Virus record (IMG/VR): IMGVR_UViG_3300028394_000040
From: a virus
Length of the DNA: 64,000 nucleotides
Reading direction: 5' to 3' (one strand)
The position numbers and the translations under genes are program-made. How positions within the stretch are numbered: the stretch's first letter is position 1; each line of letters begins with the position of its first letter. Positions 17,435 to 35,652 of the stretch are shown piece after piece. The notes under the pieces are model-generated. The model worked only from the letters and a program-made list of their open reading frames with translations, made no database searches and was not told the origin of the DNA.

Positions 17435-18362
17435 AAAAATGTATTTTAAAACTCTCTTCGTTGTAAATGTTATTATAATTTGTTTTAGCTATTTCAGATT
17501 GGTCTTTATAAAAATCTTCATCAGTAACTAGCATTTGCATTCTACTCTTAGCTGCTTCTATGTCTCCCATCTCTACTGTTAAGTTAGGGTGTAAAACTTC
17601 TTGAGTATCTAAACCATAATAGCCAATATTAGGTATGCCTAAATATGCGCAATTAAGAGCGAAAGTACCAGCAGCTTGTGTAGGCATTAAATGAATAGCA
17701 TATTTAAATTTACTCAGTTCATAAATCCAATTTGTCCAATTAGTATAAGGAATATGAATAACTAACTGCTCTTCTCCTGGCTGTCTTCTTCCCATTGAGG
17801 TAGCATACACAGTAGGGAAGTACTGACTAGCAACTATAAAAGAGTCAAACCCTCCGTACCACTTAACAAAGTTTCCTCCAATTATAACTCCATCTCTTTT
17901 TTCACTAGGTATTAATTTAGAACTGTCTAAGGATGCTTCTATCATTGTCGATTTTAAAATACGAACATCACTATGATTAGTTAACCCTCTTAAATATTTC
18001 ATATCTTGATAGTTATGAGCAAATAAAATATCTACAGAGCATAACGTATTGTAGAACCAAACCTGTTGGTCTAAAGGATAGTCTTGGAAAAACCAGCTAG
18101 GTCCTTCCTGCATAATAGCTACCTTCTTACATATCGTACTTATCTTCTCTAAAGAATTCTTTGACATACAATATTCTATATTCTTCTTAGGAATAATCCA
18201 AATACCTAAATCGAACTTAGGTAAATCCTTTGGCCATTCTTGCATTAAAGGCAAATGAAAAGCTTCTAAAGCTATTTGCCAAGCCAGGTCTACTCTAGAA
18301 TTATCGAACTCACGAGTAATTTTTCCGATATAGTTACCTTCTGTAAAAAATGCTATATTCAT
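17409..18362 (-). CDS. GT-B glycosyltransferase-like protein
   Basis: AAGTFALNCAYLGIPNIG; lies in the GT cluster. Confidence 0.65.
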   Translation of the reverse strand: MNIAFFTEGNYIGKITREFDNSRVDLAWQIALEAFHLPLMQEWPKDLPKFDLGIWIIPKKNIEYCMSKNSLEKISTICKKVAIMQEGPSWFFQDYPLDQQVWFYNTLCSVDILFAHNYQDMKYLRGLTNHSDVRILKSTMIEASLDSSKLIPSEKRDGVIIGGNFVKWYGGFDSFIVASQYFPTVYATSMGRRQPGEEQLVIHIPYTNWTNWIYELSKFKYAIHLMPTQAAGTFALNCAYLGIPNIGYYGLDTQEVLHPNLTVEMGDIEAAKSRMQMLVTDEDFYKDQSEIAKTNYNNIYNEESFKIHFYDKFNIAE

Positions 18363-19183
18363 TCTTTGTTAATTAGTTCCCAGTAATAGTCAAAATCTAA
18401 ATTACGTTGATTAAATGAGCCCCACATACTATGATAAAAAGCTTCTGTTAGTAATCGTGGATTAAAATCTTTCCAATCATCTATTATAAGCAACGGAAAA
18501 TACTTAGCTAGTTGTGTGGTTACATAACTCTTTGTTACTACCGGAATTGCATTCATGTATAAGGCCTCCCATGTACGATGGCAATCTATACCGTTACCAT
18601 TCGGGGATAAAACAAAACAGGAGCTTTGAAGCTTTTTAAGATATGTTGTCTGGGTAGAGAAGTAATTGGCTGTAGTAGATGTATCTAAATAGAAATCATT
18701 TTCTATCCCGAAGTTCTTAGCTACATCTATACATTTATTTCTTTCTAAAGGATTACTACCTGGATGTACATTTAAGTAATGTAATATAGTCTTGTGTCCT
18801 GGGTTAGCTCTTAATTCGTCGAATAGAGGCCATTTACAAAAGCGTTGATTTTCTATACCAATAGGAATAGGTATAACACCTTCGAAGTTACCATTTTGTG
18901 AAAACCATTTTGTACAGTCAGCTATAGGAGCAATAACTTCGTTATCACTGTTATGAGTAATTAAAGTTCTCCCTTCAGTATAATCTAATCCTGCTACATT
19001 AACTAAATGAGTAGCAGCGAAAAAGATTCCGTTATCTCCTCTTTCATAAAACATAATATCATTATGTTCTAACCTACCTACTAACTCTTGAGGTAGATCT
19101 AATTTACCATCTATACCTCTATAAACGAAATCTAGAACTGTACCTGCTTTATCTCTAAAAGAATCACCACAAATGTACTTCAT
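18359..19183 (-). CDS. exostosin/GT47-like glycosyltransferase
   Basis: FVLSPNGNGIDCHRTWEALYMNAIPVV. Confidence 0.8.
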   Translation of the reverse strand: MKYICGDSFRDKAGTVLDFVYRGIDGKLDLPQELVGRLEHNDIMFYERGDNGIFFAATHLVNVAGLDYTEGRTLITHNSDNEVIAPIADCTKWFSQNGNFEGVIPIPIGIENQRFCKWPLFDELRANPGHKTILHYLNVHPGSNPLERNKCIDVAKNFGIENDFYLDTSTTANYFSTQTTYLKKLQSSCFVLSPNGNGIDCHRTWEALYMNAIPVVTKSYVTTQLAKYFPLLIIDDWKDFNPRLLTEAFYHSMWGSFNQRNLDFDYYWELINKE

Positions 19184-19869
19184 AAGAATAAATCGCTTAT
19201 TGTTTTAAATTTAATATTACATTCTGTAGTCAGATTAATAAGCCAGGTTCGAAGATTATCATAGTTATCTTCATTCCAAACATTTTTATTCCAATCTCCA
19301 GCTATATGACTCTGAAACATTATATTATTATTACCATGCTGGTTAATATCGTTTTCGTTTATTCCATCAGCTCCAAATACCATTTTACATGGGTTCCATT
19401 CCATTCCATGATTATGTTCGTAATGAACTGCAGCCCAATGGAAATTATGCTTTAATTGTAATTGAGATTGTTGCGAGCAAAGCCAGCCTGGGTTCCTCCA
19501 GCCAACAGGTTTGTAATTTACTTTCTGCCATTCTGAATTCATTATAGCTATTCTATCTGTAATATCTCTTTCGTTTTGTAGGAAAGCAAATTCGCATTCT
19601 CCGTATAAGTTTCTATCAGGTGTCTCATGGAAGTGACCATGTGCTGCTAGTTCGAAATATCCTTTTGAAACCATCCAATCGATCCAGTCCTTATATTGAG
19701 AAATAGGATAGTTCATATGATAATTTGAAGGAATAAATAATGTAAACTTGGCTCCGAACTCTTTGTTTAAAGAATCTAGCATTCCCATTTGCCTATCTCC
19801 TTCTACACCCCAACCAGTTTCTGGATGGTTATCGTCTATCGATATTGTTAAGTTATATGTAGGTTTCAC
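19180..19869 (-). CDS. polysaccharide deacetylase-like (CE4/DUF2334) protein
   Basis: SIDD, ELAAHGHFH, GWRNPGW. Confidence 0.75.
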   Translation of the reverse strand: MKPTYNLTISIDDNHPETGWGVEGDRQMGMLDSLNKEFGAKFTLFIPSNYHMNYPISQYKDWIDWMVSKGYFELAAHGHFHETPDRNLYGECEFAFLQNERDITDRIAIMNSEWQKVNYKPVGWRNPGWLCSQQSQLQLKHNFHWAAVHYEHNHGMEWNPCKMVFGADGINENDINQHGNNNIMFQSHIAGDWNKNVWNEDNYDNLRTWLINLTTECNIKFKTISDLFL

Positions 19870-20722
19870 ATTTAATATAGTTACCGTTTGATGATATGTC
19901 TTCTAAGCTAGGAGTAGCGATAGTATAAACCTTACTATACCTGGCTACTATGTCCATTACTCCTGATATAAATCCTACATTGAATACTGCATTACACCTA
20001 ATGTTTGTTTGGAGTCTTATGTCTCCCAACTTACTTAGATCTCCTAACGTGCAATATTTCTCAAAGGGTGTTTCATTTATTGGAATCGAACTGTAGTAAT
20101 ATAAAGGTAAGTTATACTCCTGTAAAATGCCAAGTATTTTAGAAAAATATTCCTCTCTATTAACATTTATTTCTTCAGGTTTATTAGGTATAAGAAGACA
20201 GCCATACTTTGCTCCTTCAGTTATAGTTAACCTCTCTATTTCCTCTTGAGAATCAAAGTATAACTCAGGGCATGAATCTTCAATTTCAGAATCTTGAAAC
20301 CCGTATACCTTTAACATCTGTTCTGGAAGAGGTATATAAATGTTATCTTCGTCGTATACTCTATAATGATCTGTAAATACTTCTCCAGGAATACTATCTA
20401 CTACTCCATCAATATAAGGATTATTCTTAAATATTAATCCAGGATTTAAAAAAGGATCATTCCAATTTCCCCATTGAGATGGATTAAATAACTTACTTAG
20501 TAATTCTCTACTAGGATAAGCTACTTTAGCGTTTGGATACTTCTCTTTAATAAGACGAGGCATAGCTGATACTATACCCCAGTCCCCTATCCCATGACAA
20601 GTTCTAAATATAATAAAGATTTCTTTACTGAATTCAGATATAGGAGAGATTTTGTTGAAACCTAGTCTAGGTACTTCTCCCCCGCTATATAGCTTATCAT
20701 CTATAATTCTAAAGAATATCAT
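19853..20722 (-). CDS. GT9-like (ADP-heptosyltransferase-like) glycosyltransferase
   Basis: HGIGDW, IFKNNPYID, PELYF, VGFISG. Confidence 0.65.
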   Translation of the reverse strand: MIFFRIIDDKLYSGGEVPRLGFNKISPISEFSKEIFIIFRTCHGIGDWGIVSAMPRLIKEKYPNAKVAYPSRELLSKLFNPSQWGNWNDPFLNPGLIFKNNPYIDGVVDSIPGEVFTDHYRVYDEDNIYIPLPEQMLKVYGFQDSEIEDSCPELYFDSQEEIERLTITEGAKYGCLLIPNKPEEINVNREEYFSKILGILQEYNLPLYYYSSIPINETPFEKYCTLGDLSKLGDIRLQTNIRCNAVFNVGFISGVMDIVARYSKVYTIATPSLEDISSNGNYIKCETYI

Positions 20723-21348
20723 TTCTTTTTAATAATAGCAGTAATACTATCTCTTCCTCCATCTCTATAGAAGATCTCTACAAAGTCAGTATTCTCTTTT
20801 AAGTAAGCAGCTTCCTCTTCACTCATATATTGAGTATACAAAGTACCTTCTTTTAATAACTCTAACATTTTTAATGTAGTTACATCTACCGAAGCATCAT
20901 ACCAGTCTGGAAATAAATCAAAATGAGAAGTATGTAAATCTTCTACTATAAAGTATCCACCTGGTTTAACAAATTTAAATAAGTACCCTAGGGTAGTTTG
21001 CTGATGAGGTATTAAATGGGAACCATCGTCTAGGATAAGATCATAGTGTATCGAAGTATCATCTATTACTCCTTGCAATTCGATATTATTTCCTTGATCA
21101 GCTAAGAAGATTTTTATCCTATCTTCTTCGTATTGAAACTTATCTTGATTATCTACTCCTACTATAGTAGCGTTAGGGAAGTAATCCTCCCACATACGTA
21201 AGCTAGAGTTACTTAATACCCCAATTTCCATAATCCACCTAGCATCTTCTCTCATATCTTGGAGATAGTTATGGTAGAAATTAGTAAATTGATGATTAGT
21301 AGCTTTATCAGTACCGTACTGAAGGCCTAATTGTGTTAATTGATCCAT
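20719..21348 (-). CDS. class I SAM-dependent (sugar O-)methyltransferase
   Basis: YGTDK, EIGV, ILDDGSH, GGYFIVEDLHTS. Confidence 0.85.
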   Translation of the reverse strand: MDQLTQLGLQYGTDKATNHQFTNFYHNYLQDMREDARWIMEIGVLSNSSLRMWEDYFPNATIVGVDNQDKFQYEEDRIKIFLADQGNNIELQGVIDDTSIHYDLILDDGSHLIPHQQTTLGYLFKFVKPGGYFIVEDLHTSHFDLFPDWYDASVDVTTLKMLELLKEGTLYTQYMSEEEAAYLKENTDFVEIFYRDGGRDSITAIIKKK

Positions 21349-21349
21349 A

Positions 21350-21895
21350 TTATAATTTGACTAACCAAGATGTGTCTTTAAATGTTTCGTAACTATTTCC
21401 TAACTCTTCTGTTATTGCCTGTCTTACTTGCCACATACATGAATCATGACCGCCAATATATCCTCCAGCTTTAATTTTAGGAAGCCATGCTTTAATTTCT
21501 CTCTTTACTGTATCTACTTCATGGAATGCATCTAAGTAGACAAAGTCAAAAAAACCATCCTCAAAATCTAAAGAAGCTTCTACGCTATCTTTTTTTACCT
21601 TAGTCACATTTTTATAACGTTTCATAAAAGCGTCAAATCGTCTCTCTCCTTCAATTAAAATTGTCGGGTCTCCTATCTCGGCATAAGTAGACCATAAATC
21701 TACACAGTAAATTTGCTTAACACTTCTAGCAAATACTTCTGATGATACACCTGCAAAAGATCCTACTTCAGCTATGATACTGTCTTTTGTTGTTGCTTTC
21801 TCAATTAAAGGAACTAATCCTCTGCATACATTTTGTTCTCTTTCTGCACTTTCATAGTACATTCTAGGTTGATCTAGTAAATCAATTTCTGTCAT
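21350..21895 (-). CDS. class I SAM methyltransferase (Methyltransf_24-like)
   Basis: EVGSFAGVS, DFVYLDAFH, GGYIGGHD. Confidence 0.85.
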   Translation of the reverse strand: MTEIDLLDQPRMYYESAEREQNVCRGLVPLIEKATTKDSIIAEVGSFAGVSSEVFARSVKQIYCVDLWSTYAEIGDPTILIEGERRFDAFMKRYKNVTKVKKDSVEASLDFEDGFFDFVYLDAFHEVDTVKREIKAWLPKIKAGGYIGGHDSCMWQVRQAITEELGNSYETFKDTSWLVKL

Positions 21896-23126
21896 TATCG
21901 TATATTTTAAAATTTGGTAATAGAGTAATAAAGTTTCCTGTAAAATTAACTTCGTCTTTAAATGACTCTACTATATGATCAGCAAAATTATGAGCTAAAA
22001 TAAGCATATAATCTACCTTATGTATTTCTAAAATATCTCTTGAAACTATTTCTATGCCTGTTCCTGGCATATACTTTCCTTGCTTGATATCTGTATCGTC
22101 TATAATAAAATCTATCAGGTTATTATCTGCTCTGATACTATTAAGAAATATACAACCTTTAGCTGCTGCTCCAAATGCTGCTATGCTCATCCCTTTATCT
22201 TTCAGGTTACGTAAATAATTCTTAGCTAGATCTAAATGAGTATTTATTGTATCACCCCATTCAGTATAGTATTTAAGATCATAAGCTTTTTCTCTTTGTA
22301 AGAATTCACTAACAGTTCCGTCTTCCTTTAATTTAGAATTTTCCTTAACTATTGTTACTCTCAAAGTACCTCCATGGATTACTTGCTTCTCTACATTTAC
22401 TATTCGTAATCCATGTTTCTTTAATAACTTAGTTAAAGGAGTTATAGAATAATAGTAAACATGCTCATGGTAAATCTGATCGAATTGATTAGTAACCATG
22501 TCGTGAATCCAATAAGGAAACTCTAGTACCCAAATCCCATCATCTCTTAAAAGTAATTCAATACCCTCGACAAAGGAATTAATATCTAATAAATGCTGAA
22601 AGACATTTGTGGAAGTAATAATTTTTACTTTAGGTATTAGTTTAGCAACTTTAGCTGAGAAGAAATCTACTAATACTGAAATACCCTTTTGTTGACTTAG
22701 TTCCGCTAGGTTTCTTGATGGGTCTATATTCAAACACTTTAACGGTACATCTGATACAGATTTAAACGCAGAGAGTAAAGTTCCATCATTACCGCCGATA
22801 TCAACAACTGCATCATTATCAGCTAACCTAACATACTTATTAATGTGGGTAAACATATTCTTGCAATGTTCAATGTAAGGTATATTTACTCCGGATTTAA
22901 ATAAGTAATTACAAAATAATAACTCTCCGTTAACAGCATGTGTCAATGCAGAAAGTCCAGAGGAAGGATAGTAAGTAACCTCGAGAGGGAACCTCTTACA
23001 GTTAAGAGAATCTTCTCTACTTTCATTGAGATTATTAACCAATGGAAAATTTCCTAGATTAAAATAAAATAATCTTTCAGTACTGTCCGTTATAGGGCAA
23101 GCTTTAATTATTGAATATTCTGTCAT
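21882..23126 (-). CDS. NDP-hexose C-methyltransferase
   Basis: DIGGNDGTLL, FDQIYHEH, HGGTLR, FGAAAKG, ILAHNFA. Confidence 0.88.
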   Translation of the reverse strand: MTEYSIIKACPITDSTERLFYFNLGNFPLVNNLNESREDSLNCKRFPLEVTYYPSSGLSALTHAVNGELLFCNYLFKSGVNIPYIEHCKNMFTHINKYVRLADNDAVVDIGGNDGTLLSAFKSVSDVPLKCLNIDPSRNLAELSQQKGISVLVDFFSAKVAKLIPKVKIITSTNVFQHLLDINSFVEGIELLLRDDGIWVLEFPYWIHDMVTNQFDQIYHEHVYYYSITPLTKLLKKHGLRIVNVEKQVIHGGTLRVTIVKENSKLKEDGTVSEFLQREKAYDLKYYTEWGDTINTHLDLAKNYLRNLKDKGMSIAAFGAAAKGCIFLNSIRADNNLIDFIIDDTDIKQGKYMPGTGIEIVSRDILEIHKVDYMLILAHNFADHIVESFKDEVNFTGNFITLLPNFKIYDNDRN

Positions 23127-23787
23127 AAAATTCTGTGTTCAAACTAAAATCTCTTTCGTAAGGAAAACTGGCATCTTTTACTTCCGGGTTCCGCCTTCTG
23201 GCAAACTCTAACATGGTTTTACTTTCTGTCCCTATGTTAATAACTCCTTGTATGTTACTCTTTGCTACCTTTAAAATTTTTGGAGCTATAATATCTACAT
23301 AGTCTTTACTTGTCCTAAGATTAGAATAAGCTTGATCATATGGAAATTTAGGTGAACCAAAGTTTGTCCTTATTATACAACTATTTTCTACTAGTCTGCT
23401 AGAACACTCTCCTCCTAATTTAGTCCAAGCATATTCATTAAAAGGTAATACCTTATCTGATTCTTTATTATTACCATGTTCCCAATTATAAATGTAATCG
23501 GTACTTATATAAGCTAGTCTTATTTTTGCATCTAGACAATACTTAGTAACATTAGCAGCTCCTATTATATTAGTGTTGATTGCTTTGTATGGATTTTCTC
23601 CTATGTCTATTGAATTTATTTCAGCAGCTGCATTTATAATAATATCAGGTCTGATTGACATTAATTTTTCATATAGTTTTTGGAAATCAGTTATATTAAC
23701 ATCTTTACCAAAACATATTAGATCTTTATCTATTTTTTGAAGTTCATTACCTAGTAACCCTGTACCTCCTAATACAACTACCTTCAT
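23104..23787 (-). CDS. rmlD: dTDP-4-dehydrorhamnose reductase-like (RmlD family)
   Basis: GGTGLLG, INAAA, ISTDY, YAWTK. Confidence 0.8.
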   Translation of the reverse strand: MKVVVLGGTGLLGNELQKIDKDLICFGKDVNITDFQKLYEKLMSIRPDIIINAAAEINSIDIGENPYKAINTNIIGAANVTKYCLDAKIRLAYISTDYIYNWEHGNNKESDKVLPFNEYAWTKLGGECSSRLVENSCIIRTNFGSPKFPYDQAYSNLRTSKDYVDIIAPKILKVAKSNIQGVINIGTESKTMLEFARRRNPEVKDASFPYERDFSLNTEFYDRIFNN

Positions 23788-24416
23788 TACATTTGATCAT
23801 AACTACTGTTTTGCCTCTCTTGTCTATCTATAGTCTTATGATGCTGTAAAGCCCACTCCTCTAATGGAGGTAAATGACTACCGTTATTCCAGTTGGTGAG
23901 TCTTTCATGAACTTTACCTACCCATTTTATACCTGATCTATTTTTACAAATTCTGGATTGATAGTCTGGCCAGTTAACCCATCCTTTATCATTTACTCCC
24001 CAACACCAGTCTTTAATATGCTTTTCAGTTAAACCTTCGACTATATTAACTCTTGGGATTGATATACAATCTACATCAGGGTTGGATTCTAGTACAAATT
24101 TAATAGTAGAGAAGAATGTTTCTGTTAAATACTCGTCTGCATCAATAAAGACTAAATAGTCTCTACTACAAAAATCCATAGCATTATTTTTAAATGCTGC
24201 GAAGTCCATATTTAAATCGCAATGAATTCTATGATACTCGTATCTTGAGCCTGTATTGTACTTTTCAGAAACGCTTTTAACTTCTGTAGTACATCTTGTA
24301 TCTAACTGAACTAGTACTTCATCTTCTGAATCGATATACTCGTTGAGTTGATCTAGTAACCTTTCTAATTCTACATGCTCGTTACATGCAGTAACTACAT
24401 AACTTATTGTTGCCAT
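23787..24416 (-). CDS. GT2 glycosyltransferase
   Basis: DFAAFKN, FIDADE, WPDYQSRI, WVGKVHE. Confidence 0.85.
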   Translation of the reverse strand: MATISYVVTACNEHVELERLLDQLNEYIDSEDEVLVQLDTRCTTEVKSVSEKYNTGSRYEYHRIHCDLNMDFAAFKNNAMDFCSRDYLVFIDADEYLTETFFSTIKFVLESNPDVDCISIPRVNIVEGLTEKHIKDWCWGVNDKGWVNWPDYQSRICKNRSGIKWVGKVHERLTNWNNGSHLPPLEEWALQHHKTIDRQERQNSSYDQM

Positions 24417-24418
24417 AA

Positions 24419-24859
24419 CTATAAATCAAAATAACCTAAATAATCTAACGACTCTATAAAGTCTTTACCAAAATTCTTTAATGTTGTGCTGTCTGATTTA
24501 TGATCAATATCCTTATTAGATAGTTGTTCTTTTTCTTCATCAGTTAAAGGACGAACTTTTATTGCAGTCCAACCCCAATTATCTGCTGTTCTACCGCTGG
24601 CAAATACAGTTCCTTTATCAGAAATATTAATTGCGTTAGGATACCATACTCTTCCTTTACTGTCTACTTTTTTTAAATCCTTGTAAAGAAGAGGAAGCTC
24701 TGCTTCATATTGCTCTACATCGTATTCTCCTTCTACAATAAAATCATTTCCAATAAAACCACATCCAAAGCAACTATAACTGTTTTTAGTTTCATTTAAT
24801 GGAGTAGAGTAACATGCATCAGAACCACATAGTGGGCAGGTAATTAATTCATCAGACAT
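24419..24859 (-). CDS. zinc-ribbon hypothetical protein
   Basis: CPLC...CFGCG. Confidence 0.6.
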   Translation of the reverse strand: MSDELITCPLCGSDACYSTPLNETKNSYSCFGCGFIGNDFIVEGEYDVEQYEAELPLLYKDLKKVDSKGRVWYPNAINISDKGTVFASGRTADNWGWTAIKVRPLTDEEKEQLSNKDIDHKSDSTTLKNFGKDFIESLDYLGYFDL

Positions 24860-24860
24860 T

Positions 24861-26141
24861 TTATATTCTTTTTAGTGTTGGTAATTTTAAAGGTGATATT
24901 TTTATAAAATTTTTATCTATTAACTCTCTCAATTTCTCTTCCATTTTATCCATAGAAAACTTTTCCTTATTTTCTAATGCTAATTCTGAAGCTAAAGGTA
25001 AAAACGTTGCATAGTTTTTATAAATCATATTCCACATTTTCACTACCTCCATTTCGTCAGGGTAAAACCATCTAGCTTCTTGAATTATTAATCCTTTACT
25101 TACTGCTGATCGGTGAACTTTATCTACCTTACCTCCTATTAAATAAGCTTTTTCTTTAGGTAAAAAATCTAATAACCCCGACCATCCTGAAGCTGCTATA
25201 GGTTTTTTAGATCTAGTAAACTCTAAAAGAGGTCTTCCAAATCCTTCTCCTTTAGTTAAACTTACCATTGCTTTAACTTTAGGATGATTATATAGTAAAT
25301 TTATATCTTTATCTTCTAATTCGCCATGAAGAAGGTAAATATTTGGCATATCTCCTTTAACTTCTTTTCGAATTTTTTGAATTCTTTTCTCTATTTCATC
25401 CCTATCCATTATAGAAGAACCCCCAACTGCTGTCTTAATAATTAATGCAGGTTTCGTCTTTACATTACGGAATGTAGTTAAGAAGCTTTTCAGCATGTAC
25501 CCTACATTTTTTCTATCATGACCTAACTCTCCCTGTAGCCAGTGTCCTACAAATAGAAAACAAAAATCTTCTTTAATAGAATTTAACTCAGTAGTTAAAT
25601 CTGTCTTAGGGTACTCTTTAGGGCTAATATAAAAGTACTTAGATAGATCTAAGCCTTCAAATAATACTTCAACAGGTTTTTCTAACTGTAAAGGTTTACC
25701 ACTACTCTTCTCTTTAAAAACGCTATTAGTAAATGTTGTCTTAGCAAATTCGGATGATACTAAAGTTAAATTCATCTTATTAATACCCTCAATTAAACTA
25801 GGGTCACAAATATCTGTTTCAACTCCCGCTGTAACACCTACATTATAAACTCTACCTAATGGCGTAAATTCGTTAGGAACAGTTATCATAAACCAATAAT
25901 CCGGTTGACGAGGTACATTTAAACCTAACCCTAAGTCTACTTTATCTAATATCCATCCCCAGTCATCTATATTGTCTTCTAAATATCCCCAAGGAGTAGC
26001 ACCCCATCTTTGAGATAAAACTCTAATTTCCCATTCATCTTTTTTAAGATTATAAAGAGCTCTTACAAAGTCTCTACTTCTTTGTCCGTACCCAGAGTAG
26101 GAGTCAATTGGGCAGGAAATATAACATAACGGTTTATTCAT
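24861..26141 (-). CDS. GT4 glycosyltransferase
   Basis: SGYG, DRKNV, GEGFGRPLLE, WSGLLDF. Confidence 0.88.
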   Translation of the reverse strand: MNKPLCYISCPIDSYSGYGQRSRDFVRALYNLKKDEWEIRVLSQRWGATPWGYLEDNIDDWGWILDKVDLGLGLNVPRQPDYWFMITVPNEFTPLGRVYNVGVTAGVETDICDPSLIEGINKMNLTLVSSEFAKTTFTNSVFKEKSSGKPLQLEKPVEVLFEGLDLSKYFYISPKEYPKTDLTTELNSIKEDFCFLFVGHWLQGELGHDRKNVGYMLKSFLTTFRNVKTKPALIIKTAVGGSSIMDRDEIEKRIQKIRKEVKGDMPNIYLLHGELEDKDINLLYNHPKVKAMVSLTKGEGFGRPLLEFTRSKKPIAASGWSGLLDFLPKEKAYLIGGKVDKVHRSAVSKGLIIQEARWFYPDEMEVVKMWNMIYKNYATFLPLASELALENKEKFSMDKMEEKLRELIDKNFIKISPLKLPTLKRI

Positions 26142-26142
26142 T

Positions 26143-27594
26143 TTAATATATCAATTTGTGCTTTATAGCTCTTCTTTTTTTATCTTCTATTTTTAAAAGT
26201 TGATATCTTTTTCTAGGTTTAAAAGTTGTGAAAGTCTCTTCTAAAGTACTTATAACATTTTTACACATATTAGTAGAAGACATCATTGACTCATTAGATG
26301 TAACCCATTCTCTAGCTTTTACGCCAATTGACTTTAAACGATCTGGGTCCTGAGTTTTAATAATATAAACTTCCTCAATTTTTTTAGCTATGTCTCTAAA
26401 ATCGGATCTATCGTCAAAGATATATGGAGTAGGAACAGAACCGACAATACTAGTGTTAGTAGGAAAGACTGGGAATGCCCATTCACCTGCATCTGTATAA
26501 GTTCCGAAGTGATTAGAACAGAATTCACTATCAAAATCTATCCAATTACCTTTTTCATTAGTAAATCTCATTTGATCTTGCATACCTCCTGTTACTGTAG
26601 CTATGATAGGTTTACCCGCCATCATACCTTCAGTCAAACTTAAACCCCATCCTTCGTTAGAAGAAGGTAAAGCAACAACATCACATAAATTATACAGGAA
26701 ATTAATTTCTTCTATACCTAATCTATGTTCTGATATCTTTACATTTACGTACTCTGGATCACATAAGAGATCTATTACTTCAGGAAGGTCAGTTCCGTTT
26801 TCATCTACAGCTTGAGTATGTAATAATAAAAGACATTTACTAGCTTTCTCTTTACCTATCTTATCGCAGAAAATCGAATAAGCAGCTATTAGATCACTTA
26901 CACATTTTCTTCTAATATTTCTAGCATTATAAAGCAGTACGAAATTATAGCTTTTACCTTCTAATATATGGTGTCTAAACTTGGAGAGATCAATGTTTTC
27001 CTTTTCCATAGAAGAATCTATAGGAAAGAAATGTTTCTCGTTTATCCCATGAGGAACATAACGTAGCACTTTGTCTTTAGCTTTATCACCTAATACTAAT
27101 TTATTAATATTTAAAGTCTGCTTCGATATAGCCATTAGAGCATCACAAGATTCATAATAAGGCTCATTGTAAAGTGGTGCCGGATAATCATCCCAGATGT
27201 TTAAATAGACTAACGGTATTTTTTTCCTGATTTCATTTTCGATTTGGAATAACCATATCCAATATCTAGGATCTGTGAAGATCATAATAGCGTCAGGTTT
27301 TTCTATCGATATAAGCTGTCTAATAGATTCTGGACTGCCGTACCCGTTATGAGGGTAAATAATGACATTAGCGTCTTCTATACCGTTATACTTGTTAGTT
27401 TCACCACTCAAATCTAACTTCTTACCATGCTCAGGGTGATCTATACCTGCAGCTACATTTACCCAGTTAAACCTATGTGATGTACCTACTACTATTTCTC
27501 TAGCCATAGTAGCTATTCCTGAATGCATTCTAATATCGTCGCATAACAGAAGAATTTTTTTTCTTTCTTCTTTTACAATGTAACCTTCTTTCAT
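26143..27594 (-). CDS. GT4 glycosyltransferase
   Basis: VPHG, RNIRRK, NEGWGLSLTEGMMAGKP. Confidence 0.9.
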   Translation of the reverse strand: MKEGYIVKEERKKILLLCDDIRMHSGIATMAREIVVGTSHRFNWVNVAAGIDHPEHGKKLDLSGETNKYNGIEDANVIIYPHNGYGSPESIRQLISIEKPDAIMIFTDPRYWIWLFQIENEIRKKIPLVYLNIWDDYPAPLYNEPYYESCDALMAISKQTLNINKLVLGDKAKDKVLRYVPHGINEKHFFPIDSSMEKENIDLSKFRHHILEGKSYNFVLLYNARNIRRKCVSDLIAAYSIFCDKIGKEKASKCLLLLHTQAVDENGTDLPEVIDLLCDPEYVNVKISEHRLGIEEINFLYNLCDVVALPSSNEGWGLSLTEGMMAGKPIIATVTGGMQDQMRFTNEKGNWIDFDSEFCSNHFGTYTDAGEWAFPVFPTNTSIVGSVPTPYIFDDRSDFRDIAKKIEEVYIIKTQDPDRLKSIGVKAREWVTSNESMMSSTNMCKNVISTLEETFTTFKPRKRYQLLKIEDKKRRAIKHKLIY

Positions 27595-28986: not shown

Positions 28987-30453
28987 TTAAAGCATTATTT
29001 TTGAGCCTATAAGCATGAAACTTAAGGCAGGGGTACCTGGAACAGAAGATACGTTTAATTTATAATCGCAGGCTATAGAGAACTTTTTAGATATTCTTAA
29101 GTTATACCCAACCCCACCCATTACCGAAAATGCATCTGAGAGATTCCAACCGGAACTAGTACTGTAGGATACAGGAGCAGACATAACAAATACTCCTGGA
29201 GAAATAGAATGCCTAGGGGTAAGTTGAACTGGTTTGGTCCAGAAGCCAGTAAGTGATTTTACAAAAGAATAAGATTCAGGTAAGGCTAATCCTATAAGTC
29301 CAAAGTTAGCTCCTACAACGCCTATTTTTTTAGTTGGCTTAATATAGGTATAACCTCCTATTAACATTTTAGTATTAGCAACATACGCTCCTGTAATGGA
29401 ATAATTACCTATACTTTTTAGTTTACCATCTTTAAAATTCATCAATGTAGTTCTACCTGATAATGCAAATTGCTGTAGGTCTGACCAAATTATTGCACTT
29501 ACACCCCAACTAGATTGACCTGTCATAGATGATTTAGAATAACCTAATGCAAGCATTGTAGTAAACTTATTCCTGTCGGCCTGAGCTACAGTTAAGTCCG
29601 AAGATACCATTATAGGATTAAGTCTTACTGCTTGTTTTTTCTCACCCTTCTTCTCTTCCTTCTTCTCTTCTTTCTTCTCTTCTTTTTTTTCTTCTTTCTT
29701 CTCTTCTTTTTTTTCTTCTTTAGATTCTTCTTTCTTTTCTTCCTTTTTACTTTCTGATTTAGATTCAGACTTACTTTCTTCTTTCGATTCAGATTTACTT
29801 TCGGATTTAGATTCCGTTTTAGTTTCAGTCTTAGTCTCTGTTTTAGTCTCAGAACTGCTAGATGAACTACCTCCTCCTGATGAGCTACTACTTCCTCCAC
29901 TACTAGATGAACTAGAAGGAGTAGAACTAGCTGCTGGAGCTGGAGTAGATGTTGTGGAAGGAGTAGGTGTAGAAGCTGCTGCTGAACTAGCTGTAGAGGA
30001 TGCTGCTGAACTAGCACTAGAAGAAGCAGCTGAACTGGCACTTGAGGCTGCGGCCGATGATGCACTTGAGGCAGCTGAGCTAGCTGCAGATGAAGCGGCT
30101 GTTGCTGCAGAAGAGGCAGCTGCTGTAGCGGCGGTAGAAGCAGCAGATGAAGCGGCGTTAACAGCAGCAGTTACAGCATTATTAATAACATTAGTTACTA
30201 CTGTCTGTTGTTGAGGGCAAGGTATTATAACTGACATAGTTGCTATCCAGGCTTGTAATGCTCCTGTTGTAATATCATCGGCAGTTACTACTCTATAGGC
30301 TCCTCTATAAACAATGGTGACTGCACCATTAACTAAAGGCACAGTCACAGTTGTGATTTTTCCGTCACAAGGGTCTAAAATCGTAGTTGTTAAAACTTGA
30401 GATTTAAGGGTAAACGTACATATGATTAACAGAACCGTTAATACATATTTCAT
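28987..30453 (-). CDS. secreted protein with a long low-complexity linker and predicted C-terminal outer-membrane beta-barrel
   Basis: signal peptide; A/S-rich then EKK-rich linker; ~200 aa of amphipathic beta-strands. Confidence 0.7.
   Translation of the reverse strand: MKYVLTVLLIICTFTLKSQVLTTTILDPCDGKITTVTVPLVNGAVTIVYRGAYRVVTADDITTGALQAWIATMSVIIPCPQQQTVVTNVINNAVTAAVNAASSAASTAATAAASSAATAASSAASSAASSASSAAASSASSAASSSASSAASSTASSAAASTPTPSTTSTPAPAASSTPSSSSSSGGSSSSSGGGSSSSSSETKTETKTETKTESKSESKSESKEESKSESKSESKKEEKKEESKEEKKEEKKEEKKEEKKEEKKEEKKGEKKQAVRLNPIMVSSDLTVAQADRNKFTTMLALGYSKSSMTGQSSWGVSAIIWSDLQQFALSGRTTLMNFKDGKLKSIGNYSITGAYVANTKMLIGGYTYIKPTKKIGVVGANFGLIGLALPESYSFVKSLTGFWTKPVQLTPRHSISPGVFVMSAPVSYSTSSGWNLSDAFSVMGGVGYNLRISKKFSIACDYKLNVSSVPGTPALSFMLIGSKIML
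29640..30180 (-). repeat. coding low-complexity tandem repeats (AASS, ETK/ESK, EEKK)
   Basis: degenerate 12-nt period repeats visible in both DNA and protein. Confidence 0.85.
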
Positions 30454-30782
30454 TACTTTTTAGTATAATATCGACGTTTTTTCTTTTTTAGTAACTTCAT
30501 ATCTTTTGCTTCTTCAGCAGCTGCTTCTGTAATAGCTGCTGGTACCTCTTCCGGTATTACTGGCTCAGTACTACCTACTACAGTAAGTTGTGGATCCTGT
30601 ACTACTACCTCTTCTAAACTAGATGAAGGTTCCGCGGGTACGTCCGGTAAAGGAGGTCTAGAATCAATATTCTTTAAAACTTCTTTTACCAGAATCTCTT
30701 CTGAGTTAGTTGATGTCTTATACTTCTTATAAAGGAAGTATCCCGAAACTGCTAATGCCAATACGATTATAACTGTTAACAT
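30453..30782 (-). CDS. single-TM membrane protein
   Basis: N-terminal TM, Pro/Glu-rich middle, basic tail. Confidence 0.55.
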   Translation of the reverse strand: MLTVIIVLALAVSGYFLYKKYKTSTNSEEILVKEVLKNIDSRPPLPDVPAEPSSSLEEVVVQDPQLTVVGSTEPVIPEEVPAAITEAAAEEAKDMKLLKKKKRRYYTKK

Positions 30783-30794
30783 AAAATTGATTGT

Positions 30795-31529
30795 TTAATT
30801 TTTAAAAATACGTTTCTTAATCATTCTTACAAGGATTCTAGATGATGCAATTTCTAAAGCTTTTTTTGTAGTCGTACCTATAGTAGACTGATTAAATTTA
30901 ACTTCTGAAAAGTTATCATCATTCATTAAAGTAAGCTCTCTAACTGTCTTAGCTTCCCCTAAACCTGAACCTGTAAAGTATTCCCCGGTTTCTGCATCGA
31001 CAAATTTAACCTGTAGGCCCATTCTAGTTACTACAGTGTTTTTAACTCCATTTTTGAGATTTACTGTTTCGTCTTCACTGACGCTAAAATCATAAACCTC
31101 AATATAGACAAAGTATCTAGCAAGTTTTATCTTACCTCTTCCGTCTAATTTATTCTCTGTTATACCTGATTGGCTAGCTTGAAACTGCTTAACCATTCGA
31201 TTTTTGATCTCTGCTTTATCTTCTGTAAAAGTAAATCTTCCCGTCTCTTCCAAAAACTCCACAACAATATTTGTAACCCCTAATCCTACTCTTTTGTCTT
31301 TTAATTCGGGATATGCGGCATAAACTTCTTCGTTTATACCTAACTGAAGTAACTGTACTGGAATCGTTGGTCCATCGTAATTCATTAGAGAGTCGATATT
31401 GATTTTTTTTTCAAAGGAAGCTTGATATGCTTCTGTCTTTGTTGAACCAACTACCTGACTTACTGCCGGTAAAGATAGTAAAGTAAAAAGTAAAAACCAA
31501 ATTTTAGTCATATGATTCATCAGTATCAT
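30795..31529 (-). CDS. CsgG/HfaB-like secreted protein
   Basis: signal peptide; L..TGRF.F.E, KIKLARYFVYIEVYDF and QVKFVDAETGE pattern of the CsgG fold. Confidence 0.7.
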   Translation of the reverse strand: MILMNHMTKIWFLLFTLLSLPAVSQVVGSTKTEAYQASFEKKINIDSLMNYDGPTIPVQLLQLGINEEVYAAYPELKDKRVGLGVTNIVVEFLEETGRFTFTEDKAEIKNRMVKQFQASQSGITENKLDGRGKIKLARYFVYIEVYDFSVSEDETVNLKNGVKNTVVTRMGLQVKFVDAETGEYFTGSGLGEAKTVRELTLMNDDNFSEVKFNQSTIGTTTKKALEIASSRILVRMIKKRIFKN

Positions 31530-31803
31530 TTTGTACAGGCTTAGTTGCCTTAGCTACCTTATCTTTCATTCCAGTAAATTTATCTACAGAAGATAAACCT
31601 AAAGCCCCGAACGCTAATAATGCTACCGCATTAACTAAAGAGTCAGCAGGAGCAATATGTGCTTCAGAAAAAGAATTAGAGTACATAGTAATACATAATG
31701 TAAGTGCAGCTAACAAGCCAACAAATCTTTTAGATGATACAGCTCCTTTTTCATCAGCTAATAAAGAATTAGCACCATCCATAAATTTTTTTAAAATTTC
31801 CAT
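31504..31803 (-). CDS. two-TM membrane protein (holin-like); likely start at 31803
   Basis: SSKRFVGLL plus two TM helices; TAATG coupling to the upstream ORF. Confidence 0.6.
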   Translation of the reverse strand: MEILKKFMDGANSLLADEKGAVSSKRFVGLLAALTLCITMYSNSFSEAHIAPADSLVNAVALLAFGALGLSSVDKFTGMKDKVAKATKPVQNDTDESYD

Positions 31804-31955
31804 TACCAAGGTTGTTTAGAGATTATGGCCGATATCTGCTTAGCTTTTAAGTTTTGGTCTGTAAAATGTAAGTATACAAAATACGATTGGAATGCTAAAG
31901 CAACAAAGATCCAAGCCAAAACCAAATTCGAAAATATTTTATATAACTTATTCAT
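31803..31955 (-). CDS. small membrane protein (50 aa, not in ORF track)
   Basis: hand translation MNKLYKIFSNLVLAWIFVALAFQSYFVYLHFTDQNLKAKQISAIISKQPW*. Confidence 0.55.
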   Translation of the reverse strand: MNKLYKIFSNLVLAWIFVALAFQSYFVYLHFTDQNLKAKQISAIISKQPW

Positions 31956-31962
31956 TTTATTA

Positions 31963-32538
31963 TTAATCTATATTATCCTTAATTTTTCCACATTTTAAAC
32001 ATTCCTCATCTCCATCCCCGTCCGAGTCACCCCATACATGGTCACATTGACGATGTTCAAAGTATTCATCTATCTTACCATCACCGTCAAAATCCAAACC
32101 ATCCATAGTTCCATCTCCGTCTTCATCAACCTCCACACCTTTCTTTCCCTCTGACTTCTTAGCTGTAGAATCAGTAATCGCATTGGTAAATGCTTCAGGA
32201 ATAATCGGAGTTGAAGCAGGGGTAGCGGCATCCCCTCCAGCTGTGTTAGATAAAGAAATTCCATCTTCCTCATCCATTTTTTGAACCAACATTTTATCTT
32301 TGTCAGTATCAGAGAACCAGTAATCAATAATCTTTCCATATGATCCGATAAATGCTCCTAACAATAGTAGTAATAACTCTTTCCATTCACCTTCTATAGT
32401 AGTACCTTTAACTATAGCTAGAAAGATACCACCTATAATAAACATAAAACCACCAAGAACCATAGCTGTAATAAGCCATCTTCTTGTCATCATTTGATTT
32501 AACAGGTCTTTAAACCCTGTTGCATTAGACTGTAACAT
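31963..32538 (-). CDS. two-TM protein with acidic Ca-binding-like DxDGDG repeats
   Basis: DEDGDG, DFDGDG and DSDGDG; C-terminal CDH...CLKC. Confidence 0.65.
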   Translation of the reverse strand: MLQSNATGFKDLLNQMMTRRWLITAMVLGGFMFIIGGIFLAIVKGTTIEGEWKELLLLLLGAFIGSYGKIIDYWFSDTDKDKMLVQKMDEEDGISLSNTAGGDAATPASTPIIPEAFTNAITDSTAKKSEGKKGVEVDEDGDGTMDGLDFDGDGKIDEYFEHRQCDHVWGDSDGDGDEECLKCGKIKDNID

Positions 32539-32555
32539 ATTTTATACTTTTTTAA

Positions 32556-32864
32556 TTACCACTTTGGTTCTTCTTTCAAAGCTTCCTTTTCTGTCTTTGC
32601 TTTAGGTTTAGCAGGTTTTTCCACTACTCTCTCAATAACCTTAGTTCCGCCACCGGCTGCTTGTTGTTGAGAGTTATTAGTAGTAATATTAATTACCGGG
32701 GCAGGAGCAGTAACAGCTGCTGGTTGTGCTGATTCTGCTTCTTTTTCACCACCGAATATATGTGATGCCAACCAAGTACCAGCACCTACTATAAGAGTTC
32801 CTCCTGTAGCTACTGCTGTTTTGATCAATCCTGACCAAGTTCCATCATTATTTTCTTCTGACAT
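32556..32864 (-). CDS. single-TM protein
   Basis: TM followed by APAPVINITT. Confidence 0.55.
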   Translation of the reverse strand: MSEENNDGTWSGLIKTAVATGGTLIVGAGTWLASHIFGGEKEAESAQPAAVTAPAPVINITTNNSQQQAAGGGTKVIERVVEKPAKPKAKTEKEALKEEPKW

Positions 32865-32868
32865 TATC

Positions 32869-33237
32869 TTATCTTTTAATTACTAATGGTTTTTTAACTG
32901 ATACTCCGGATACGTCTGTTAAGGTAAGATCGTAAAGTCCATCTTCCAAATCTGTAAAATCGTATATCTTTGTTACAATTTGTTCTTCAGCAGTTAAAGG
33001 TAAAGTCTTACTTGGTTCAGAAGCAGCAAATTTATAAACTTGAACAGAATATTTTGCTCCAGCAGTAACTGCGTATTGAACCGTAACCTTTCCACCAACT
33101 GAATTTATACTTATGATACCTGTAGATTTAGAAGTAGCGCCTAAATTAATACTTGGCTCTGTTAACACATCTACATCTGAGCATCCTATTATAAATAGAG
33201 ATGAAACTAGTACTCCTAATATTAATAAGTTTTTCAT
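32869..33237 (-). CDS. lipoprotein with Ig-like, T9SS-CTD-like domain
   Basis: lipobox-like FIIG-C; C-terminus DFTDLEDGLYDLTLTDVSGVSVKKPLVIKR. Confidence 0.6.
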   Translation of the reverse strand: MKNLLILGVLVSSLFIIGCSDVDVLTEPSINLGATSKSTGIISINSVGGKVTVQYAVTAGAKYSVQVYKFAASEPSKTLPLTAEEQIVTKIYDFTDLEDGLYDLTLTDVSGVSVKKPLVIKR

Positions 33238-33239
33238 AG

Positions 33240-35042
33240 TTAAAAATTGTTATATCCAGTTAATTTTATTGAATCTGTATTTAGATTTATACCTAATTGA
33301 GAACCTTTATTATCTGCTGCATCCATAGCAGGAGTCACTTTTATTAAGGAGTTTATATCTAATCCGTTGTTAATAGTAGAGAACTTTAAAACAAAAGGAG
33401 TAAGAGAACCTTTTATAGGAGTTTTAAAATCTTTATCTACTCCACCAAATTTTATTGTACCTGTTACATTATTAGCAAAAATTTGCCATGTTTCAGGTAA
33501 TGTAGATTTCATACTTTCAAATTTAATTTTAGAAGAGTCGTATTTAAATTCAAATTGTAAAGCAGAAATATTAGCTCCGTCGATATTAACCGGAATTTCT
33601 ATAGTATTAGATGTCACTGTAGTATTTTTTAAACTAACACTAATTGAAGGTACATTTTGAGGTGTGTTAATAAATGCTTCACTACGATTCATACTAGGAC
33701 CGGAAGCATATAATTTATTAGCTATACTTCTTTTTAATGACGGAATAGCATTTGTCTGTATATTACCGTTCTGAACTACTTGTGAAGAATGTGAACGATT
33801 TACATCACCAGGTAAAACATATTTAATGTCTATAGTAAGTGGATTTCCTGATGTTGCAGGAGATGTATATTCAAATACAGCTTGTGATGTTTTTGGTGCA
33901 TCAGTTTTCCAATTTGAAGGTGTCAATCCATCAAAATGTGCTGCTTTGAATGTAGGTACACTCATATGCCCTCCACTTCCTTGAACATATCCAGAAGGTA
34001 TTGTAATTAATTGATTTACACCAACTGCTTGTGCATATAATCTAGTTAAATCACCACCATCAAAACTGTCACTTCTATTAACATCAGCTGCCCAATATCC
34101 CATACCAGTTTTAATACTTTGATTACCATATGTTTTATCTAAGTTTTGAGTTATAAATTCAGCATCAGCTGTTGTATAATCAGATACTGATACCGCGGAA
34201 TTCATTATGCCCGGTAATTGATCCATATTAATGAATGTCATAATCTTATATGCTGTATTAGCTGTTATCAAAGTATCAATAACATTTACCTTACCATCTG
34301 CTGTAACATCAAATAATGGACCTGTATTGTCTGCTTTTAAAAAACCAACTTTAACATGAGCTGGATTAATATTTCCATTTAAATCTAATTTAGCATAAAA
34401 GAATTTTTTAGCTAATGGATTTAATGTAATTACGTTAGTTAATGGAATTTCGTTTATTGCAGCACCTGATGAGCCGTTTTGGTTAAATGATGCAGCAAAG
34501 TTCATTTTAATTGGATTCCATGTATCACCTACTGCTGTTGATTTTAATCTAAAGCGGAGTCTCAGTACATCACTATAAGCATTATAAGGTAGAGGTGAAT
34601 TAGAAGCCCAGTTTAAATAAACACGAATAATAGTTTTAGGACCACCTTGAGTATAATTGTAACCAGCATTGTTGTAGTTAGTATTACCATTTGCTGTCGT
34701 ATTATTTGCATTTCCAGCAAAAGAATAACCTGGGTATGTATAATTACTTATTGTAATTGATGATCCTGCTGGCAATACTCCACCATTTCCTCCAGTGCCA
34801 GTATGAGCCACACTTATAAAATCAAAGGCTGTATTTTGAAATTCGAAATCAAAATAAAGAGAACGAGCAGTTGTATTGCCGTTTCCATTTAATTGAACAG
34901 GAACAAAAAACTCATCACCTTTCATGATAGTTGTACCACCAACATTAATTTTCGTGGAATCAGAAGATAACCTAATTTTAGGTTCTTGAGCAAATGCAGT
35001 TAAACTTACCAAGGTTAATAGTAAGACTAAAAATTTTTTCAT
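33240..35042 (-). CDS. secreted cohesin-dockerin-cohesin domain protein
   Basis: signal peptide; cohesin-like GDEFFVPVQL..SLYFDFEF and IEIPVNI..ISALQFEFKYDSSKIKF; dockerin-like AADVNRSDSFDGGD and PGDVNRS. Confidence 0.75.
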   Translation of the reverse strand: MKKFLVLLLTLVSLTAFAQEPKIRLSSDSTKINVGGTTIMKGDEFFVPVQLNGNGNTTARSLYFDFEFQNTAFDFISVAHTGTGGNGGVLPAGSSITISNYTYPGYSFAGNANNTTANGNTNYNNAGYNYTQGGPKTIIRVYLNWASNSPLPYNAYSDVLRLRFRLKSTAVGDTWNPIKMNFAASFNQNGSSGAAINEIPLTNVITLNPLAKKFFYAKLDLNGNINPAHVKVGFLKADNTGPLFDVTADGKVNVIDTLITANTAYKIMTFINMDQLPGIMNSAVSVSDYTTADAEFITQNLDKTYGNQSIKTGMGYWAADVNRSDSFDGGDLTRLYAQAVGVNQLITIPSGYVQGSGGHMSVPTFKAAHFDGLTPSNWKTDAPKTSQAVFEYTSPATSGNPLTIDIKYVLPGDVNRSHSSQVVQNGNIQTNAIPSLKRSIANKLYASGPSMNRSEAFINTPQNVPSISVSLKNTTVTSNTIEIPVNIDGANISALQFEFKYDSSKIKFESMKSTLPETWQIFANNVTGTIKFGGVDKDFKTPIKGSLTPFVLKFSTINNGLDINSLIKVTPAMDAADNKGSQLGINLNTDSIKLTGYNNF

Positions 35043-35542
35043 AGTTTGTCTAGTAGTTTAGTGACTAAGGAAACCGATGCCTTTTTTAAAGCATTACGAA
35101 GTGATTGTTGATTAAAACCTCCGGCTTCAGAAATCAATAAAGTAGACATTGAAATTTCTGATGACTTTTCTGTAGCGGTCTTAGTACGAAGTACTTTACC
35201 TTTTTGAACTAATTGCCCTTTTAAAGTTATTATAACTGAATTTACGTCCTTGTGAAATACTGATAGGTTAGAGTTAACTTGTTCAACATCTAAATAGATT
35301 ACCTCTACTTCTATTGAGTAGTCAGCTTCTTCTTTATTAGATGATAAAGAGTAACTTTCAGATACTAATTCTTCTAATATATTTTTTACTCCAAAGGTTA
35401 ATTTAAAATTACCTGCTAAAGGTCCAACAACTACTTTGTTGTCCACCTTGTTAATAAAAAGACTTTTAGGATTACTTTGTGCTTGAATAGAACAAAGGGG
35501 TATTATACTTAATAAAAAAGCAACTAATAATTTCATATTCAT
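35039..35542 (-). CDS. secreted alpha/beta protein (LptE/CsgG-like fold possible)
   Basis: signal peptide; ADYSIEVEV and NALKKASVSLV resemble the 30795..31529 C-terminus. Confidence 0.5.
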   Translation of the reverse strand: MNMKLLVAFLLSIIPLCSIQAQSNPKSLFINKVDNKVVVGPLAGNFKLTFGVKNILEELVSESYSLSSNKEEADYSIEVEVIYLDVEQVNSNLSVFHKDVNSVIITLKGQLVQKGKVLRTKTATEKSSEISMSTLLISEAGGFNQQSLRNALKKASVSLVTKLLDKL

Positions 35543-35590
35543 AGTTAGGTCGAATATAAATAGAATAGTTACTTAGAAACTTTCTAAAAT

Positions 35591-35620
35591 AAAAAAAAAA
35601 GCCTGCTACTGCAGGCCTTT
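35591..35620 (-). terminator. intrinsic terminator
   Basis: GCCTGC-AGTA-GCAGGC followed by a ~10-nt T tract on the minus strand. Confidence 0.8.
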
Positions 35621-35652
35621 TCTTCGATATTTAATACTTTATATTGATATAC

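Follow-up and report, generated by a model that had tools for sequence, protein, structure and literature searches.

A conserved phage gene module encoding a CsgG-superfamily protein, a stalked outer-membrane barrel and a cohesin protein, with a possible role at the host cell surface

The 64,000-nt stretch of the IMG/VR virus record IMGVR_UViG_3300028394_000040 (the window, whose numbering is used throughout) carries on its minus strand, at positions 28987–35542, ten densely arranged, co-oriented genes recovered from the open reading frame (ORF) listing and labelled g1 to g10 in the order of transcription (Table 1). Neighboring genes are separated by 0–17 bases or overlap, and a signal peptide, a lipobox or hydrophobic segments can be read from the translations of all ten products. 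This arrangement agrees with an earlier note made from the sequence alone, which had described ten tightly coupled genes for secreted or membrane-bound proteins lying behind a terminator; the latter is found as a 15-pair stem followed by a T9 run. The leader of the module (35543–35591) lies between this terminator and g1, and a 71-base gap follows g10. A sigma-70 scan, whose model was not made for Bacteroidota promoters, did no better than shuffled sequence (36 sites against 30 expected). The core of the module consists of g8, g1, g10, the single-pass inner-membrane protein g4, and g2. Conservation was followed by searching 80 related IMG/VR contigs with the ten proteins (tblastn); with locus L001 of the cultured Flavobacterium phage immuto, these make up 81 loci.

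Table 1. Features of the module and its upstream boundary in the window
Feature	Position	Strand	Description
g1	35039-35542	-	167-aa exported protein, short CsgG/YajG-like paralogue of g8 (by profile)
g2	33240-35042	-	600-aa secreted cohesin protein
g3	32869-33237	-	122-aa lipoprotein, beta-sandwich resembling a type IX secretion system (T9SS) C-terminal sorting domain
g4	32556-32864	-	102-aa single-pass membrane protein, core member
g5	31963-32538	-	191-aa membrane protein, DxDGDG calcium-loop repeats, accessory
g6	31803-31955	-	50-aa protein with one transmembrane segment, accessory, rare
g7	31504-31809	-	101-aa protein with two transmembrane segments, holin-like topology, accessory
g8	30795-31529	-	244-aa CsgG-superfamily protein (profile and predicted fold), type I signal peptide
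g9	30453-30782	-	109-aa protein with one transmembrane segment, variable slot between g8 and g10
g10	28987-30453	-	488-aa outer-membrane protein, predicted C-terminal 12-stranded beta-barrel
Intrinsic terminator of upstream unit	35592-35625	-	15-pair stem, 5 G-C pairs, T9 run

Components of the module

Profile comparison and the predicted fold both place g8 in the CsgG superfamily, as the earlier note had proposed. The g8 sequence alone gives no Pfam (E ≤ 1), PHROG or PDB sequence match. When 40 diverse full-length relatives were compared with Pfam, CsgG was matched by 19 of them (best 1.9e-17) and LpoB by 10, and the family profile retrieves E. coli CsgG from the PDB at E 2e-5. Structurally, the AlphaFold2 (AF2) model of g8, with a predicted local distance difference test score (pLDDT) of 84.7, has CsgG (4uv2) as its best Foldseek match (E 3.8e-7, template modelling score ~0.5), and the VIA comparison ranks CsgG (6lqh) first among 48,161 chains, with Z 13.4, a root-mean-square deviation (rmsd) of 4.2 and 177 residues aligned; LptE-like proteins, FlgT, PelC, PqiC and TraT follow as runners-up. 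The nearest structural neighbors of the model are ring or plug proteins near the outer membrane.

The signal peptide of g8 and its close relatives ends in ...AQ/V and lacks a lipobox cysteine, while a lipobox is present in the g8 of a marine phage lineage and in cellular relatives of g8. Relative to E. coli CsgG, the profile alignment shortens the hairpin equivalent to transmembrane hairpin 1 (TM1) by six residues; the tip of this hairpin (about residues 149–167) is charged and variable, and AF2 predicts the TM2-equivalent region as a strand plus a short helix. Because g8 lacks a lipid anchor and has short charged hairpins and such a TM2-equivalent, it is probably not a channel of the CsgG type and probably forms a periplasmic ring. 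A likelier pore or anchor is the barrel protein g10.

The first gene of the module, g1, is by its profile relationships a short CsgG/YajG-like paralogue of g8. Specifically, Pfam Lipoprotein_16 (YajG, PF03923) is matched by 17 of 33 g1 relatives (best E 7.4e-5, all under the cut-off) and TraT by three of the 33, and hhalign pairs the g1 and g8 families at 88% probability over a C-terminal helix motif. In the marine lineage, moreover, the equivalent 170-aa gene is matched by both the g8 and the g1 hidden Markov models at 1e-11 to 1e-15. The window g1 itself has no Pfam match, YajG included, no lipobox and no significant match among PDB sequences. The "alpha/beta secreted protein" of the earlier note is itself a paralogue of this short CsgG/YajG-like kind.

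The g10 protein consists of a signal peptide, a disulfide domain of ~60 residues, a low-complexity stalk that is first A/S/T-rich and then E/K-rich, and a barrel (residues 281–487). In the AF2 model, the barrel reaches pLDDT 85–93 and the N-terminal domain ~80, and residues 97–238 are disordered. Residues Q19, D27, C29, W69, P78 and C79 are invariant, the two cysteines lying in the 60-aa domain. The barrel aligns in VIA with the NalP translocator (Z 21.0), COG4313 (Z 20.3), KdgM (Z 20.1) and FapF (Z 19.6), the overlay on the KdgM porin extending over 166 residues at rmsd 1.8 A and 6% identity; NanC is also matched, and the best Foldseek match is FapF (E 1.8e-7). From these models, the C-terminal domain is confidently predicted to be a 12-stranded barrel of the autotransporter/FapF/KdgM kind, so that the beta-barrel with a disordered linker described earlier is recovered by AF2, Foldseek and VIA alike. 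Pfam searches of 26 family members returned low-complexity noise and no match to the Autotransporter, OMP_b-brl or FapF families, and the protein atlas gives a weak lead to OMP_b-brl.

The mature N-terminus of g10 resembles the N-terminal motif of CsgF, a likeness that receives no support from searches. A CsgF-like plug was rejected as an identity for this region, as Pfam CsgF is matched in none of the 26 relatives and the N-domain profile does not retrieve CsgF from the PDB. The stalk region itself (residues about 97–276) is of extreme low complexity: runs of A/S/T give way to S/G, and these to (E/K)n repeats. The AF2 model renders the E/K stretch as one helix (242–269) that is not conserved in relatives, and between phages the stalk varies from about 40 to 250 residues. 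Its length shows no clean correlation with a lipid anchor on g8, as judged from a crude lipobox pattern. Two antisense ORFs (29625–30065 and 29954–30214) are artefacts of this low-complexity stalk.

The C-terminal domain of g2 is, by its profile match, a bona fide cohesin: residues 474–533 score 28.3 bits with Pfam Cohesin (PF00963), whose cut-off is 24.1 (E 2.2e-6), and 23 of 36 relatives match the model as well (best 1.5e-11). The N- and C-terminal domains of g2 cross-match weakly, and the N-terminal domain is only weakly cohesin-like. The middle region contains calcium-loop (dockerin-like) motifs, in which D320, D328, G330 and D331 are invariant and N322 and G329 nearly so, and the two loop-like motifs lie about 75 residues apart. 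Dockerin_1 (PF00404) is matched below the cut-off (E 0.091), and at 5e-4 in one of the 36 relatives. Of the cohesin-dockerin protein named in the earlier note, the cohesin is thus retained and the putative dockerin is weakly supported.

In most lineages, the cohesin protein ends in what its profile matches identify as a canonical T9SS sorting domain (C-terminal domain, CTD). All nine 630-aa variants of g2 in the alignment match Por_Secre_tail after the cohesin domain (best 1.1e-8), and several short forms, including immuto gp015 and those of loci L097 and L082, consist of cohesin plus CTD. The sorting domain marks the protein as a candidate cargo of host secretion.

The window's lineage carries a separate lipoprotein, g3, composed of a lipid anchor and a CTD-like domain with no cargo part. 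Its lipobox Cys19 is invariant. Por_Secre_tail (PF18962) is matched by 11 of 27 family members (best 5.9e-5), and hhalign relates g3 to the genuine CTD present in the 630-aa variants of g2 (87% probability, E 3.7e-6), in keeping with the T9SS-CTD-like character first noticed in its sequence; the window g3 itself reaches no CTD model threshold in Pfam or NCBIfam. Since g3 resembles the CTD of g2 and was detected at no locus with a CTD-bearing g2, the separate gene looks like the product of gene fission. In the alignment of the g3 family (A4), acidic residues usually occupy positions +2 and +4 after the lipobox cysteine (CxDxE; residues 19–23 of the g3 in the window), a pattern resembling the surface-export signal of Bacteroidota lipoproteins.

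Just upstream of the immuto cohesin gene, gp013 and gp014 (L001:4788–6950) encode, respectively, a protein with a C-type lectin domain and a secreted protein of 363 residues whose end, GDVNGTG, resembles a calcium loop. These genes may supply the dockerin-like partner that the window's lineage has as a fused part of g2.

Conservation in phages and relatives in cellular genomes

The module is strongly syntenic in other phages, so that the refuting condition set in the earlier note does not apply. By tblastn, g8 is found at 80 loci, g10 and g2 at 78 each (these counts include immuto L001) and g1 at 77, with the order kept. The arrangement g1-g2-(g3)-g4-(g5)-g8-(variable)-g10 is preserved in about 77 of the 80 viral contigs, its smallest form comprising six genes; in about 78 of the 80, g8 and g10 are both conserved and neighbor each other, with g10 directly after g8 in most loci. 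The same gene order in related contigs shows that the cluster is not a chance arrangement. The cultured phage immuto (host LMO8) carries a five-gene core of cohesin-CTD, g4, g8, g10 and g1, and was the only phage found when cultured phages were searched by megablast and tblastn.

Across the IMG/VR loci, g8 is 69–87% identical and by far the best conserved member of the module, the partners g1, g2 and g10 ranging from 22 to 80% and mostly from 25 to 55%. A conserved g8 with divergent partners is in keeping with a machine of which one component is constrained while the exposed ones evolve quickly. The g8 search reached 346 viral contigs, and a search of 1.8 billion representatives with g8 gave 246 clusters; near-length homologues of g8 form 6279 clusters at 90% identity, mostly metagenomic and many of them named CsgG by JGI. 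This abundance suggests that the module is common in large Bacteroidota phages, especially freshwater ones. The ten module proteins gave nothing significant against PHROGs.

The genes g8, g10 and g1 also occur together in a second viral lineage, which includes Tara (marine) members; its g8 carries a lipobox and shows about 43% identity. At L084 (5584–6459 and 9191–9886; also at L086 and L088), the core of this lineage is flanked by a putative outer-membrane protein of ~285 residues ending in ...GFEI/F, a 130-aa transmembrane protein and a 231–242-aa transmembrane/beta protein, all three in place of the large cohesin protein.

The small membrane proteins are less evenly distributed. The Pro/Ala- and Lys-rich tail of g4 accompanies a protein with no significant family match that is present at 60 of the 81 loci and has a 45% identical counterpart in immuto gp016. 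The g5 protein (34 loci, no family match) contains three DxDGDG-type calcium-loop repeats followed by an HxxC...CxxC motif, which resembles a small zinc ribbon. Three loci carry g6, which has a weak T4SS_pilin match (E 0.0021, below cut-off), and 13 carry g7, with no family match. The g9 protein combines an acidic, Pro-rich region with a basic tail, and its slot between g8 and g10 is occupied at other loci by different genes or by none.

A genome scan with alignment A7 identified cellular relatives of g8 at 29 loci (L100–L128) in metagenome-assembled genomes of many phyla, including Desulfuromonadota, Nitrospinota, Ignavibacteria, Fibrobacterota and KSB1, on contigs of up to 4.6 Mb, several exceeding 1 Mb. 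The closest of these relatives are 33–44% identical to g8. Most of the loci contain two tandem CsgG-like genes, the second being a weaker paralogue, and at 23 of the 29 the next gene encodes a protein of 320–420 residues (once 690), in most cases ending in an outer-membrane-barrel signature; three of five such downstream proteins tested have weak Autotransporter, OMP_b-brl or FlgT_N Pfam matches. The cellular clusters differ from the phage module in that their g8-like proteins carry a lipobox and no cohesin or CTD genes are present there. To our knowledge, this tandem CsgG-like plus barrel cluster has neither a name nor a described function. Relatives of the P0195 type were found on none of the viral contigs.

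Examples of the three-gene cellular cluster are seen at L127:7355–9881 and L113:7207–9697, where the barrel ends in ...F; lipoboxes were observed in the g8-like member of the cellular loci read, and occasional neighbors include a caspase-like peptidase (L127) and a transglutaminase-like protein (L100).

The window is a portion of a large freshwater phage, with all genes on the minus strand. Other products encoded there are a GroEL-type chaperonin, ribonucleotide reductase, family A DNA polymerase, glycosyltransferases and an exonuclease. One of the related viral records is a complete genome of 168,946 bp with terminal repeats. Assignment of the cluster to a virion structural module was ruled out, since its products all have an export signal, a lipobox or transmembrane segments, an outer-membrane barrel being among them. 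Several glycosyltransferase-type genes, two of them confirmed via PHROG, lie just downstream, at 16253–27594. A functional tie to this neighboring island is unlikely and was likewise rejected, as the flanking genes are not conserved in related loci; the one flanking glycosyltransferase gene tested (26143–27594) has no counterpart there.

Comparison with described systems

Phage csgG/csgF clusters have been described in pelagimyophages (PMC7029224) and in the OM43 phage Melnitz (PMC9004378), with unknown function, and phage-encoded T9SS cargo has been reported once, for "Cryophage" (PMC7468147). In view of these reports, the statement in the earlier note that no such system had been described was too strong. 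Marine phages are already known to carry curli-type clusters, though none is known with the partner set of g1–g10.

The csgG/csgF "partial curli operon" of pelagimyophages (HTVC008M gp014–gp016) and of Melnitz resembles the module in combining a CsgG-superfamily protein with exported proteins in a large lytic myovirus-type phage, with no recognizable curlin subunits. The HTVC008M protein, however, is a canonical Pfam CsgG (E 1.8e-54) accompanied by an annotated CsgF, whereas g8 reaches CsgG only via intermediates, and the two clusters have no detectable family in common. None of the partners of g8 described here, namely the g10 barrel with its 12 strands, the short paralogue g1, the cohesin protein as T9SS cargo and the CTD-like lipoprotein g3, has a match in the HTVC008M cluster. 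E. coli CsgG (4uv2/4uv3/6lqh; PF03783) is the best fold match of g8, which has a conserved YP motif that aligns with the YP of CsgG, which we take to be its constriction loop. No Pfam or NCBIfam match to CsgE, CsgF, CsgA/B or FapC was obtained among the ten module proteins.

Ring or plug lipoproteins of this fold that work with a separate outer-membrane barrel, as in PelC–PelB (9h80, 5t0z) and LptE–LptD, offer a further parallel. The g8 model matches PelC with Z 10.3 and LptE-type proteins with Z 9–12, and its gene adjoins a barrel gene with which it is co-conserved; no sequence relationship is shown, however, and other phages link no polysaccharide or lipopolysaccharide pathway to the module. 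The barrels differ in size as well, PelB having 16 strands and LptD 26, against 12 predicted for g10. With the type Va translocators (NalP, BrkA, AIDA-I) and FapF, g10 shares a C-terminal 12-stranded barrel (Z 19–21), a preceding helix and an N-terminal extension, but where those proteins have a beta-helix passenger or a coiled coil, g10 has a 60-aa disulfide domain followed by a stalk of low complexity.

Like the module, Cryophage possesses phage genes with type A T9SS sorting domains, a presumed hijack of host secretion. Its cargo consists of enzymes and a PA14 protein located in variable islands, whereas here the cargo is a cohesin protein within a conserved multi-gene envelope module; the window's lineage also differs from Cryophage in having the tag split off as a lipoprotein.

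Proposed function and alternatives

The preferred reading, to which a probability of roughly 45% is assigned, is that the module is a conserved phage operon that remodels the host envelope, its products forming a complex in the outer membrane of the infected cell and changing the cell surface. We infer that the host is a member of the Bacteroidota with a T9SS. During infection, g10 would insert into the outer membrane, and g8 and g1 would assemble a ring or plug on its periplasmic face, by analogy with PelC–PelB and LptE–LptD. The CTD-bearing cohesin protein would be exported by the host T9SS and, with its calcium-binding loops, would end up on the cell surface. The benefit to the phage would most likely be a changed or masked surface, through which superinfecting phages may be excluded, progeny may be kept off infected cells and debris, or cells may be stuck together.

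Several observations weigh against this reading. The g8 protein itself reaches no Pfam threshold, and PF03783 has no match in immuto or in either of two complete genomes of related phages. The g2 of the window's lineage lacks a sorting domain that would take it to the surface. Homology between the cellular downstream barrel and g10 is not detectable (hhalign 18%), so that the phage and cellular clusters are comparable in gene position alone. As the flanking genes are not conserved between phages, genomic context is silent on function, and PADLOC gave a single hit, in the low-complexity stalk of g10, and no genuine match to any defence protein, whether known or candidate.

An alternative judged unlikely is a role in lysis or its timing, in which the outer-membrane complex, with g4–g7 and g9 as holin- or spanin-like parts, would breach the envelope late in infection. 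The topologies are suggestive, g7 being holin-like with two transmembrane segments and g4 and g9 bitopic with extended periplasmic tails, and no spanin was identified among the ten module proteins and ten other window ORFs screened. The idea also has a precedent in print, as Buchholz et al. proposed a lysis-timing role for the CsgGF of Melnitz (PMC9004378). The holin-like g6 and g7, however, are confined to 3 and 13 of the 81 loci, the T9SS-secreted cohesin protein has no obvious lysis role, and the module is surrounded by replication and nucleotide-metabolism genes; a homologue of the immuto endolysin gp236 does not lie in the window, and in immuto that endolysin is about 8 kb from the module. 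A slightly smaller chance is given to type VIII or Fap-like secretion, whereby g8 or g10 would serve as a channel exporting an unfolded substrate whose fibres aggregate cells. CsgG is indeed the best structural and profile match of g8 and FapF the best Foldseek match of g10, and "sibling capture" has been suggested for the curli clusters of pelagimyophages (PMC7029224). The module nevertheless contains no Pfam or NCBIfam match to the substrates and accessory proteins CsgA/B, CsgE, CsgF and FapC, and has no detectable family in common with the HTVC008M curli cluster; in g8 the lipid anchor is missing, and the TM1-equivalent, besides being charged, falls six residues short of that in CsgG. The FapF match of g10 (Z 19.6) is moreover no better than those to the generic 12-stranded barrels NalP (21.0) and KdgM (20.1).

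The same KdgM match leads to a still slimmer prospect, nutrient uptake, in which g10 would be an oligosaccharide porin of the KdgM/NanC type and surface cohesin and lectin-type proteins would capture the substrate. The barrel fits KdgM closely (rmsd 1.8 A, Z 20.1) as well as NanC, in immuto a gene for a C-type lectin domain lies two genes upstream of the cohesin gene, and an uptake role has been suggested for phage CsgG (PMC7029224). The fit to KdgM is unaccompanied by sequence similarity (6% identity), however, and simple porins have neither the conserved N-terminal domain and long stalk of g10 nor its obligatory partners g8 and g1. The slimmest chance of all attaches to interference with the T9SS, in which g3 or the CTD-tagged cohesin protein would block the host translocon or shuttle and stop the export of gliding adhesins that act as phage receptors. 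Resistance of Flavobacterium to phages often maps to gliding and T9SS genes, and g3 has nothing beyond its lipid anchor and CTD-like domain. Against this stand the conserved g8–g10–g1 core, which it would leave unexplained and which in cellular relatives lacks any CTD protein beside it, and the failure of g3 itself to reach the threshold of any CTD model.

Remodelling of the envelope admits a more far-reaching version, which is possible although doubtful. According to this version, a phage-built outer-membrane nanomachine, made of a CsgG-fold ring and a stalked barrel and derived from the cellular tandem CsgG-like plus barrel system, would act together with hijacking of the T9SS to coat the cell with a self-associating cohesin scaffold. 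If true, it would represent an undescribed and widespread form of surface re-engineering by freshwater and marine Bacteroidota phages, serving exclusion, progeny protection or aggregation.

The module joins two puzzles, each so far a genomic observation: the curli-type secretion genes of phages and their T9SS-tagged cargo. In immuto and its host LMO8, a cultured pair is available in which both become testable. Beyond phages, the module points to an unnamed cellular three-gene system, composed of two CsgG-like lipoproteins and a barrel, that occurs in many phyla.

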